DNA of 4,170 nt from a virus. Its lineage: Duplodnaviria; Heunggongvirae; Uroviricota; Caudoviricetes. The stretch is from IMG/VR virus record IMGVR_UViG_2695420613_000016; one strand, written 5' to 3'. Below are positions 2,391 to 3,497 of this stretch, one piece after another; positions within the stretch are counted from its first letter, which is position 1; each line of letters starts with the position of its first letter. A program made the translations under genes and the position numbers. The notes beneath the pieces are model-generated. The model was not told where the DNA came from, did no database searches, and saw nothing but the letters and a program-made list of their open reading frames with translations.

Positions 2391-2430
2391 ACAATAAAAA
2401 ACTGTTTTTGTGTCAACAGTTTTTAATTGT
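2391..2430. promoter_or_regulatory. OL-like operator: 40-bp palindrome ACAATAAAAAACTGT-N10-ACAGTTTTTAATTGT
   Basis: 15-bp arms are a 14/15 inverted repeat; the left arm is identical to the left arm of the site at 3426..3440. Lies between the terminator after the toxin gene and the leftward small-gene cassette. Confidence 0.5.
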
Positions 2431-2440
2431 TGTTTTGGGC

Positions 2441-2463
2441 AAAAAAATCCCTCGAAAGAGGGA
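2441..2463 (-). terminator. Rho-independent terminator downstream of the toxin gene (minus strand)
   Basis: Stem 2448..2453 (tccctc) pairs with 2458..2463 (gaggga), loop gaaa; plus-strand A7 at 2441..2447 gives a U7 tract directly 3' of the hairpin on the minus-strand RNA. Begins 18 nt after the toxin stop. Confidence 0.5.
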
Positions 2464-2481
2464 GTATGAAAATTGTTCAAC

Positions 2482-2769
2482 TCAGATAGAGAAGGGAAAT
2501 TGTCGCCGAGAATGTGTCACGCTTACAATCTCAATGCTTGAAGCAGCTACTCTGTACAGGATTATGTAGTTAGGGTGGGTCACGATCTCTCTCAATCCAG
2601 AAACCCGTTCGCTTGGTGGATATAAGTACGGATGCTCAGATAGAGGTAATACCGATGTTTCAATGCGTATTTTTAGTCTACGTGCTGCCGGTGGGTTCTC
2701 CTTGGCGATGTAAGTTATGATCTGGCGCAAATCATCGCGAGCAGACGGTAGCCATAAAATGGGTAACAT
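2482..2769 (-). CDS. parE: ParE/RelE-family type II toxin (95 aa)
   Basis: ORF track. Shows the ParE pattern (ILWLPSARDDLRQIITYIAKENPPAARRL ... GLREIVTHPNYIILYRV ... IEIVSVTHSRRQFP). Start overlaps the antitoxin stop (minus-strand TAATG at 2771..2767), the classic TA coupling. Confidence 0.85.
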   Translation of the reverse strand: MLPILWLPSARDDLRQIITYIAKENPPAARRLKIRIETSVLPLSEHPYLYPPSERVSGLREIVTHPNYIILYRVAASSIEIVSVTHSRRQFPFSI

Positions 2770-2960
2770 TACTCGCTCTTGTTAGTTACAGCAATTTGAG
2801 CAATAAGATTTTCCATTTCAGCCATTACCTCGTCATGTGGAATTGCGGGGCGAGTGTCTGCAAGGCTTGACGTTACTTTAGTGCGCAACCATTCGTTGTA
2901 ACTGTTTTCTTGTTCGGTAGTTTCGAATTCTGAAACTATCGGAGAAAGGGCTGTACCCAT
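2769..2960 (-). CDS. paaA: Small antitoxin (63 aa) of the ParE module, PaaA-like rather than a canonical ParD
   Basis: ORF track. Immediately upstream of and coupled to the ParE toxin gene; RBS GAGGAG 7 nt before ATG. Size and position fit PaaA of three-component PaaR-PaaA-ParE modules; the family name is recalled, not searched. Confidence 0.65.
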   Translation of the reverse strand: MGTALSPIVSEFETTEQENSYNEWLRTKVTSSLADTRPAIPHDEVMAEMENLIAQIAVTNKSE

Positions 2961-2987
2961 GGCATAACTCCTCTTCTTGTACTGTGG

Positions 2988-3389
2988 TCACGCCCGGCGG
3001 CTTTTTTGTGCCGCCAGCCACCTAGCAATGGTTTCTTCCATTGATTTTTTCTTGTCTTTGATTTCTTGAAGCATTTTTTCTTGGTCTTCCTCAGGAAACG
3101 CACTAAAAGCTTGGAGCAGTTCGCGTTGGCGAGGACCAATTTTCATCGTGTCAGGGGTGAAAATTTGCTCACACTCTTCAGGAGGCAATAAAAACCAATG
3201 CAATGGATGCCCTGAAACCTCAACCAGTTTATCCAAACTTGAGGCTTTAGGTGTAGCCTTACCGCTGACCCATTGTTGAACAGTTTGTTGTGTCACACCA
3301 ATTCTACGGGCAAGCTCAGCCTGGCTCCATCCAGTTTCCTGAAGAAGCTTGCTGATTCTGTACATAGATACTTCTAGGGCGCTCATCAT
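2988..3389 (-). CDS. paaR: CI-like HTH (XRE-family) repressor (133 aa); first gene of the repressor-antitoxin-toxin operon, PaaR-like
   Basis: ORF track. HTH signature WSQAELARRIGVTQQTVQQWVSGKATP. Divergent from a Cro-like gene across an operator-rich region. No Shine-Dalgarno upstream of the ATG. 27-bp gap to the antitoxin gene on the same strand. Confidence 0.75.
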   Translation of the reverse strand: MMSALEVSMYRISKLLQETGWSQAELARRIGVTQQTVQQWVSGKATPKASSLDKLVEVSGHPLHWFLLPPEECEQIFTPDTMKIGPRQRELLQAFSAFPEEDQEKMLQEIKDKKKSMEETIARWLAAQKSRRA

Positions 3390-3497
3390 TATTCAATTTT
3401 ACAGGTAAATACTGTTAAAAGCATCACAATAAAAAACTGTTGATTGCATACAGTTTTTTATTGTAGGCTTTGCTTATAGTTTTTAGAGGAGGGCAAA
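3390..3497. promoter_or_regulatory. Divergent promoter-operator region between the repressor and the Cro-like gene (OR-like)
   Basis: AT-rich 108-bp region holding the 39-bp palindrome at 3426..3464 and a weaker site ACAG-N7-CTGT at 3397..3420. A TATAGT at 3475..3480 is a possible rightward -10 but sits too close to the RBS to be sure. Confidence 0.6.
3426..3464. promoter_or_regulatory. OR-like operator: 39-bp perfect palindrome ACAATAAAAAACTGT-N9-ACAGTTTTTTATTGT
   Basis: 15-bp arms are exact reverse complements. Centred between the divergent repressor and Cro-like genes; same motif as 2391..2430. Confidence 0.6.

Follow-up and report, generated by a model that had tools for sequence, protein, structure and literature searches.

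Two palindromes flanking a repressor–toxin–antitoxin operon in Escherichia coli O157:H7: putative OR and OL operator/promoter sets of a lambda-like prophage switch

Why does a prophage region of Escherichia coli O157:H7 carry two near-identical palindromes, one at either end of an operon that encodes a repressor and a toxin–antitoxin (TA) pair? The question arises from a 4,170-nucleotide stretch of the virus record IMGVR_UViG_2695420613_000016 (Caudoviricetes), which is referred to as the window throughout. An earlier note on this DNA had proposed that one repressor acts at both palindromes and controls the rightward lytic genes as well as a leftward cassette of small genes, in the manner of the right (OR) and left (OL) operators of phage lambda. 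The window holds a lambdoid immunity region, from a prophage integrated beside yccA in E. coli O157:H7. Its sequence was 100% identical to a prophage region in E. coli O157:H7 strains, and the prophage in strain OK1 adjoined yccA, with the integrase at the yccA end. On the sequence comparisons described here, it is highly probable that one palindrome is the right and the other the left operator/promoter set of a prophage switch of the lambda kind, each made up of 15-bp repressor sites, and the locus as a whole reads as an immunity region of the DicA/PaaR2 type whose half-site code resembles that of 434.

The 15-mer ACAATAAAAAACTGT was found at four positions of the window: exactly at 2391-2405 and 3426-3440 (+ strand) and at 3450-3464 (− strand), and with one mismatch at 2416-2430 (− strand). 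Chance would account for 0.31 sites, and none of 200 dinucleotide shuffles reached four. This 15-mer search bore out the earlier note, which had placed exact copies at the first two positions, each with an inverted copy 9–10 bp away; the gap between the arms measures 9 bp at OR and 10 bp at OL. The arms of the OR and OL palindromes agree at 29 of 30 positions, while their spacers differ except for a common TGA, and each arm is by itself a pseudo-palindrome, ACAAT-N5-ACTGT. When the pattern was relaxed to ACAR-N7-YTGT, only five matches appeared in the window, namely the four arms and 3401-3415 (0.29 expected; 0/200 shuffles), all of them inside the two regulatory regions. The fifth match bears on a weaker related site that had been noticed at 3397-3420; the site is real, but it is better placed at 3401-3415, where it corresponds to a third right operator (OR3) overlapping the −10 element of the promoter for repressor maintenance (PRM). 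Near OL, no third site, that is, no sixth near-match with seven of the eight outer bases, was detected, barring 2397-2411, which overlaps OL1 itself. The 108-bp region between the repressor gene and the divergent Cro-like gene ydaS contains three ACAR-N7-YTGT sites, which overlap the predicted PRM −10 and the −35 and −10 elements of the predicted rightward promoter (PR). The likeness to lambda OR and OL is supported and can be refined to three OR and two OL sites, listed here with the predicted promoters, including the leftward one (PL).

3450..3464, unstranded: OR1, 15 bp, ACAGTTTTTTATTGT, in the PR spacer, at offset −75 from the repressor ATG
3426..3440, unstranded: OR2, 15 bp, ACAATAAAAAACTGT, at offset −51; the PR −35 starts at its final T
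3401..3415, unstranded: OR3, 15 bp, ACAGGTAAATACTGT, at offset −26, overlapping the PRM −10
2416..2430, unstranded: OL2, 15 bp, ACAATTAAAAACTGT on the − strand; the PL −35 starts at its final T
2391..2405, unstranded: OL1, 15 bp, ACAGTTTTTTATTGT on the − strand, in the PL spacer
3440..3469, + strand: predicted PR, driving ydaS-ydaT; −35 TTGATT (3440-3445), 18-nt spacer, −10 TAGGCT (3464-3469)
3396..3401, − strand: predicted PRM −10, TAAAAT, ending 6 nt before the repressor ATG at 3389
2386..2416, − strand: predicted PL, driving ydfABC-dicF-dicB; −35 TTGACA (2416-2411), 19-nt spacer, −10 TAGATT (2391-2386)

Read towards ydaS, the right region consists of OR2, TGATTGCAT, OR1 and AGGCT, with the last T of OR1 starting the PR −10. 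The left region, read leftward, follows the same plan (OL2, TGACACAAAA, OL1, AGATTA). Each palindrome is best read as a pair of dimer-type operators of 15 bp that enclose a −35 hexamer; the −10 begins with the final base of O1. The two palindromes would look alike because both represent an O2, −35, O1, −10 module for one repressor/Cro pair. Of the approximately 40-bp palindromic operators that had been described at first, the near-identical palindromes thus stand, but the single operator unit gives way to a pair of 15-bp operators around a −35. Promoters were assigned by reading the sequence and by comparison across lineages. At PR, TTGAY and TAnnnT are kept in position in six lineages, and a TAAAAT, TAGAAT or TATAAT is kept at the PRM −10 position in all classes of locus. 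Since TAAAAT ends 6 nt before the ATG, the repressor mRNA is predicted to be leaderless, with a start at 3389 (− strand); the starts expected for PR and PL are at about 3476 (+ strand) and about 2379 (− strand), respectively. The only −35 candidate of PRM is poor; OR2 abuts it, and the centre of OR2 lies at about −44 from the predicted PRM start. The OL spacer (2406-2415) is longer by one A than in most E. coli variants (10 bp instead of 9), so that the −35/−10 spacing of PL is 19 nt instead of 18; the longer spacer may weaken PL.

The search for the motif was extended to the 50-kb prophage. With up to two mismatches, the 15-mer was found only at the four window sites, and hence did not recur at non-regulatory places. 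ACAR-N7-YTGT gave seven matches against about 3.2 expected; five lie in the immunity region, and the remaining two are G/C-centred, inside tail genes and within chance. These counts bear on the explanation that the repeats have no regulatory function and arose as A/T-rich chance matches, a recent duplication, a mobile repeat of the repetitive extragenic palindromic or miniature inverted-repeat type, or a terminator hairpin. The repeat sequence is indeed A/T-rich, of low complexity and located next to a terminator. However, shuffled sequences never reach the observed site counts, the prophage holds no further copies, no T-run follows the palindrome stem, and the sites are conserved amid variable flanks and co-vary with the repressor helix across classes, as described below. 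We therefore regard an origin of this kind as extremely unlikely.

For comparison with other lineages we collected repressor homologues together with their flanking DNA, which yielded 85 loci; a scan of genome contigs with the repressor alignment contributed only two useful loci. Repressors from Salmonella (80% identical), Raoultella/Klebsiella (68%) and Pluralibacter (69%) carry the recognition helix of the window repressor, QQTVQQ (class A); a further homologue, from Morganella, is 68% identical. Sites at −75, −51 and −26 from the repressor ATG were observed in the window, Salmonella, Raoultella/Klebsiella and Pluralibacter; in Morganella the −75 and −51 sites fit and the −26 site is degenerate (ACAGTTTTTATCGGT). 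The inner seven operator bases vary between lineages yet stay A/T-rich, and the outer bases are kept. A downstream pair with 23–25 bp spacing is present in all five of these lineages, at +507 to +1291 depending on the cargo carried between the repressor gene and OL. This cargo is the TA pair in the window and consists of unrelated genes of 112–152 aa in Salmonella, Raoultella and Pluralibacter, while Morganella has no cargo and its downstream pair lies about 110 bp past the repressor stop codon. In two E. coli loci (L060 and L061) the TA genes are deleted and the operator sites are still present. Over the whole set, the contents of the slot between repressor and OL comprised a PaaA/ParE pair, unknown genes of 112–152 aa, a DUF2767 gene, a deleted TA remnant, or nothing (examples: L060 3902-4110, L061; L002 4553-4915; L005 4530-5171; L011 4550-5008; L012 4154-4266). 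The slot is a moron slot like that of lambda rexAB, and the TA pair is interchangeable passenger cargo.

Because the palindromes bracket the repressor–TA operon, they might be taken for autoregulatory operators of the PaaA–ParE complex, in the way of classical type II TA operons. Identical sites with unchanged offsets are found without TA genes, though, in Salmonella, Raoultella, Pluralibacter, Morganella and the two E. coli loci with the deletion. Conversely, E. coli loci whose repressors carry the helix QQSVQK, and the locus of prophage CP-933P (L100), have PaaA2/ParE cargo and yet other operator sequences. Moreover, PaaA2 lacks a recognisable DNA-binding domain (PMC8630535). Since the sites persist with other, no or deleted cargo, they do not belong to the TA module, and control by the PaaA–ParE complex is scarcely credible.

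Within E. coli, 41 viral-contig loci (L022-L062) with a repressor at least 91% identical to that of the window, together with the window itself, formed a set of 42 loci and 19 haplotypes. OR1 and OR2 were identical in 42/42 loci. With the 19 haplotypes aligned by MAFFT, variable columns numbered 1 of 45 in the operators and 31 of 71 elsewhere in the intergenic region (Fisher p = 2.7e-7), and the single variable operator column is the central base 10 of OR3. The operator columns thus appear to be under purifying selection. The OL pair was likewise kept in all 42 loci amid variable flanks. A hypervariable patch of 5 nt lies between OR1 and OR2 (window 3441-3445), with 11 different 5-mers in the 19 haplotypes (e.g., ATGCA, ACACA, ACGCG, ATTTG, TCATG); it adjoins the conserved ATCA that forms the PR −35.

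The same alignments allowed us to weigh whether the dyad of 39–40 bp (O2, −35, O1) acts as one unit, either bound head-to-head by a tetramer or extruded as a hairpin or cruciform, with its mirror symmetry under selection. The OR arms are exact inverted copies in 42/42 E. coli loci, and so are the OL arms in most loci, via a symmetric double change from OR (A6T in one arm, T10A in the other). Inverted identity exceeded direct identity in 14 of 16 O1/O2 pairs from different lineages, as single strands the stems greatly exceed shuffles in stability (z = −7.0 and −3.8), and PaaR2, the repressor of CP-933P, forms octamers (PMC8630535). In other lineages, however, the arms are complementary at only 9–14 of 15 positions, whereas the ACAR/YTGT ends and the offsets persist. 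OR3 stands alone, every 15-mer is pseudo-palindromic by itself, and perfect symmetry could also come from template-switch correction of quasi-palindromes, without selection. Given that uncompensated single-arm changes occur in E. coli OL variants, including the OL of the window, we treat a special role of the 39-bp dyad as a minority possibility and consider it improbable. If it were true, the geometry of the switch would be unlike the side-by-side dimer cooperativity of lambda.

The recognition helix of the window repressor is T33-Q-Q-T-V-Q-Q39, and the best solved relative of its helix-turn-helix (HTH) domain was the 434 repressor (E = 3e-5). In the phmmer alignment to 2r63/1per, QQTVQQ lies over QQSIEQ; this pairs the invariant Q34 and Q35 with the 434 residues Q28 and Q29 and places the variable residue 39 opposite Q33. 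Co-crystal work on the 434 repressor is reported to show that Q28 and Q29 read the invariant ACA and that Q33 reads base pair 4. Base pair 4 is where the operator classes differ (A/G versus C). Taken together, the helix alignment and the 434 contacts suggest that the half-site code is 434-like, in an operator with one more central base pair.

Comparison between classes is consistent with this code. Repressors with QQTVQQ go with ACAR-N7-YTGT sites. QQTVQR repressors go with ACAC/ACTC-N7-GTGT/GAGT sites, which occur both at OR and in a pair immediately upstream of the left operon, the geometry being nearly kept (offsets within a few bp). QQSVQK repressors are accompanied by ACAC...GTTA-type sites at both OR and OL, and QQTIQK repressors by ACAAC-N5-GTTGT-type sites. 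The Cro-like protein of the R and K classes has R or K at the corresponding helix position. In classes A, B and C the OL motif equals the class-specific OR motif. The earlier proposal of one repressor for both sites gains support from this comparison, as OR and OL share a class-specific motif in every immunity class examined and the motif co-varies with both the repressor and the Cro helices. The association amounts to a testable recognition code, in which Q at repressor residue 39 would specify ACAR, and R or K would specify ACAC. The C-terminal part of the 133-aa repressor matches PaaR2 and DicA, and Pfam returned no match to a Peptidase_S24 domain in this protein.

The QQSVQK loci constitute a third E. 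coli immunity type (L008-L010, L069-L073, L078-L083, L089-L092), which combines this helix and the ACAC...GTTA-type operators with a PaaA2/ParE pair whose ParE is 89% identical to ParE2. As the third type also carries PaaA2/ParE, the TA cargo travels with at least three repressor/operator sets. An assignment of the QQSVQK loci as PaaR2-like was rejected, since the true PaaR2 starts with MQKKE according to the published primer table.

A link to experimentally characterized promoters came from CP-933P. The start of paaR2 was rebuilt from the published primers, and the true CP-933P locus (L100) was used for comparison. We then aligned the left promoters of the window, CP-933P, Salmonella and the third E. 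coli immunity type. The alignment showed an invariant GTTGAC, followed by a divergent stretch of about 30 bp with type-specific operators and −10 elements. The −10 candidates of the window (TAGATT) and of CP-933P (TAAACT) are both located 7 nt before a conserved CCAACC, and the window OL with its TTGAC aligns with the validated PL933P promoter of CP-933P, which further favours a common repressor for OR and OL. PaaR2 and YdaS each repress PL933P about 100-fold, and each leaves a footprint on the CP-933P OR region; low-level PaaR2 activates PRM933P, and the paaR2 transcript is leaderless (PMC8630535). Downstream of the divergent stretch, a leader of about 120 nt is almost invariant over the four immunity types, including the Salmonella prophage. 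In the window, the region between PL and ydfA (2205-2378, − strand) begins with a C-rich segment, CCAACCACCCACCCCGCCCC. The leader gave no Rfam match and no excess of predicted RNA structure (z = +0.54).

In the mechanism that we propose, the 133-aa repressor would bind as dimers to the 15-bp ACAR-N7-YTGT operators via its 434-like HTH. Repressor on OR1 and OR2 would cover the PR spacer together with the margins of the PR −35 and −10, and so turn off ydaS/ydaT and the replication genes; on OL1 and OL2 it would do likewise at PL and turn off ydfABC-DicF-DicB and the exonuclease/int side. By analogy to lambda OR2 and to the activation of PRM933P by PaaR2, OR2 may occupy an activating position for PRM and, abutting its weak −35, probably stimulates the leaderless repressor transcript. 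The overlap of OR3 with the PRM −10 would lead to autorepression at high repressor levels. YdaS, with its similar helix, is predicted to use the same sites, as Cro does, and looping between OL and OR might be mediated by the PaaR2-like C-terminal part of the repressor.

Several observations weigh against this interpretation. The N-terminal DNA-binding part of the repressor differs from that of PaaR2, so that results obtained on CP-933P carry over at the level of architecture only. There are few classes, and loci that share a class are related to one another; the co-variation thus rests on about four independent specificity switches. A consensus promoter scanner called neither PR nor PL, the PR −10 TAGGCT fits the consensus at only 3/6 positions, and the PL spacer is 19 nt in this strain. 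A literature search for the two 15-mers retrieved no paper mentioning the motif.

The gene layout agrees with the earlier description, which had put one site in the divergent repressor/Cro-like region and the other beyond the TA terminator, ahead of the leftward cassette. The terminator itself could be located after the toxin gene. The features of the window are as follows.

2988..3389, − strand: repressor, CI analogue, 133 aa, with an HTH_3 domain and a DicA/PaaR2-type C-terminal part (Pfam)
2769..2960, − strand: PaaA2-family antitoxin, 63 aa, cargo gene (PF21217, E=5.6e-19)
2482..2769, − strand: ParE-family toxin, 95 aa, cargo gene (PF05016; 67% identical to ParE2 of 5cw7)
2463-2448, − strand: intrinsic terminator of the repressor–TA operon, a stem followed by a T-run (terminator scan)
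3498..3770, + strand: YdaS, Cro analogue, 90 aa, whose helix A-Q-Q-T-V-W-Q resembles the repressor helix (PF15943)
3754..4047, + strand: YdaT, CII analogue, truncated by an IS3-family element; part of the switch, not of the operators (PF06254)
384..2378, − strand: early-left operon under PL, with a leader of about 175 nt, then ydfA to dicB
2049-2204, − strand: ydfA/DUF1391 (Pfam)
1919-2047, − strand: ydfB
1518-1907, − strand: gene in the ydfC position
758-809, − strand: DicF small RNA (76.9 bits)
384-572, − strand: dicB (Pfam, DicB)

An operon of a regulator, a PaaA2-family antitoxin and a ParE toxin beside ydaS-ydaT corresponds to the gene order of CP-933P (PF21217, PF05016, PF15943, PF06254). 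The toxin is only 67% identical to ParE2 of CP-933P, indicating that the window locus is a paralogue of paaR2-paaA2-parE2 and not that locus. From the neighbouring genes and an 'ECs1072 family' annotation, we infer that the window is the CP-933M/Sp4-type paralogue of the CP-933P locus. A homologue of the CP-933P module was stated to reside on CP-933M (PMC8630535). A literature search on paaR1/CP-933M returned nothing relevant, and megablast of 2380-3500 against 50,697 phage records gave no match, so that the immunity region was present in none of these records.

An insertion sequence of the IS3 family (IS1203-like) interrupts ydaT; the gene is cut at about 4044 (window 4044-4170). Many O157 genomes match the window no further than 4043. 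Owing to this interruption, the arm of the switch formed by YdaT and the promoter for repressor establishment (PRE) is probably dead in this strain. At the end of ydaS and the start of ydaT, the sequence TTGATTCATGAAAATCAA (3747-3764) matches TTGATT-N6-AATCAA exactly (0.04 matches expected by chance). TTGATT-N6-AATCAA is the published YdaT operator motif, known as the OM site of CP-933P (PMC9986795), and 3747-3764 is probably the PRE-type site of this prophage. Within the early-left operon, a 24-nt inverted repeat was noticed between DicF and dicB (585-608/728-751), with arms that are 92% complementary and 119 nt apart. It is overlain by a sub-threshold STnc100 match (33.6 bits; cut-off 47) and could represent a long processing stem of the dicF-dicB transcript.

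What is new here is modest: the operator motif and promoter map of this immunity type, a putative code like that of 434 on a site of 15 bp, and the co-variation from class to class. In practical terms, the analysis provides the motif ACAR-N7-YTGT with promoter assignments for one O157:H7 prophage immunity type, for which we found no earlier dissection. The OL promoter drives a copy of DicF and DicB, which inhibit cell division. O157:H7 carries several DicF copies on different prophages (PMC10448788), and the pairing of repressors with the copies that they silence is therefore relevant to phenotypes of filamentation and regulation. The analysis leaves the general view of lambdoid switches unchanged.

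The architecture is a textbook one and has been shown experimentally in two sister systems. In the first of these, CP-933P, the order and orientation of PL, parE, paaA, repressor, PRM/PR, ydaS and ydaT are the same as in the window, the TA pair occupies the rexAB slot, and several operators at OR are combined with a second set at the PL promoter beyond the toxin gene. The leaderless repressor gene, predicted in the window, was shown for paaR2 by rapid amplification of 5′ cDNA ends. The two YdaT proteins are about 95% identical. In contrast, PaaR2 and the window repressor share 42% identity over residues 37-133 only, i.e., the C-terminal two-thirds; their N-terminal DNA-binding parts differ, and so do the two YdaS proteins. 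The CP-933P operators are of another type, GTTTAGTG-type repeats instead of ACAR-N7-YTGT, and no ACAR-N7-YTGT site was found in the CP-933P OR. At OL, the window has two sites, compared with three reported for CP-933P.

The second system is prophage Qin, in which DicF and DicB are kept silent through repression by DicA of dicBp, a promoter upstream of ydfA (PMC10448788; see also PMC3441716 for the Qin switch). DicA is a short repressor without a RecA-cleavage domain and shares its architecture with the window repressor, with 28% identity over 111 aa (BLASTP, K-12 DicA), including a C-terminal ELL..F.A(L/F)PE.(D/E)Q segment. Qin also has a divergent Cro-like gene and a leftward ydfA-ydfB-ydfC-dicF-dicB promoter just downstream of the repressor gene, and in dicBp, as in PL, an operator lies between the −35 (TTGACC) and the −10 (TAATCT). 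It differs in having no cargo between dicA and dicBp and operators of the TTAGT...CTAA type, and DicC is outside the YdaS family by annotation.

With phage 434 the window shares ACAA/ACAG half-sites around an A/T-rich, uncontacted centre, a helix motif common to repressor and Cro, and a tripartite OR. The 434 operators, studied by Wharton, Brown and Ptashne in 1984, Koudelka et al. in 1987 and Aggarwal et al. in 1988, are reportedly 14 bp long with the form ACAA-N6-TTGT, as against 15 bp in all class-A lineages. The C-terminal part of the window repressor is unrelated to the S24 peptidase domain of the 434 and lambda repressors. At 133 aa and without an autocleavage domain, the repressor must be induced in some other way than that of lambda. 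The sequence relationship to lambda is limited to the HTH class, and the window OL is bipartite. The logic, however, is that of lambda: a divergent PRM/PR pair with three operators, a leaderless repressor mRNA, and a second operator set at PL beyond accessory genes that are co-transcribed with the repressor.

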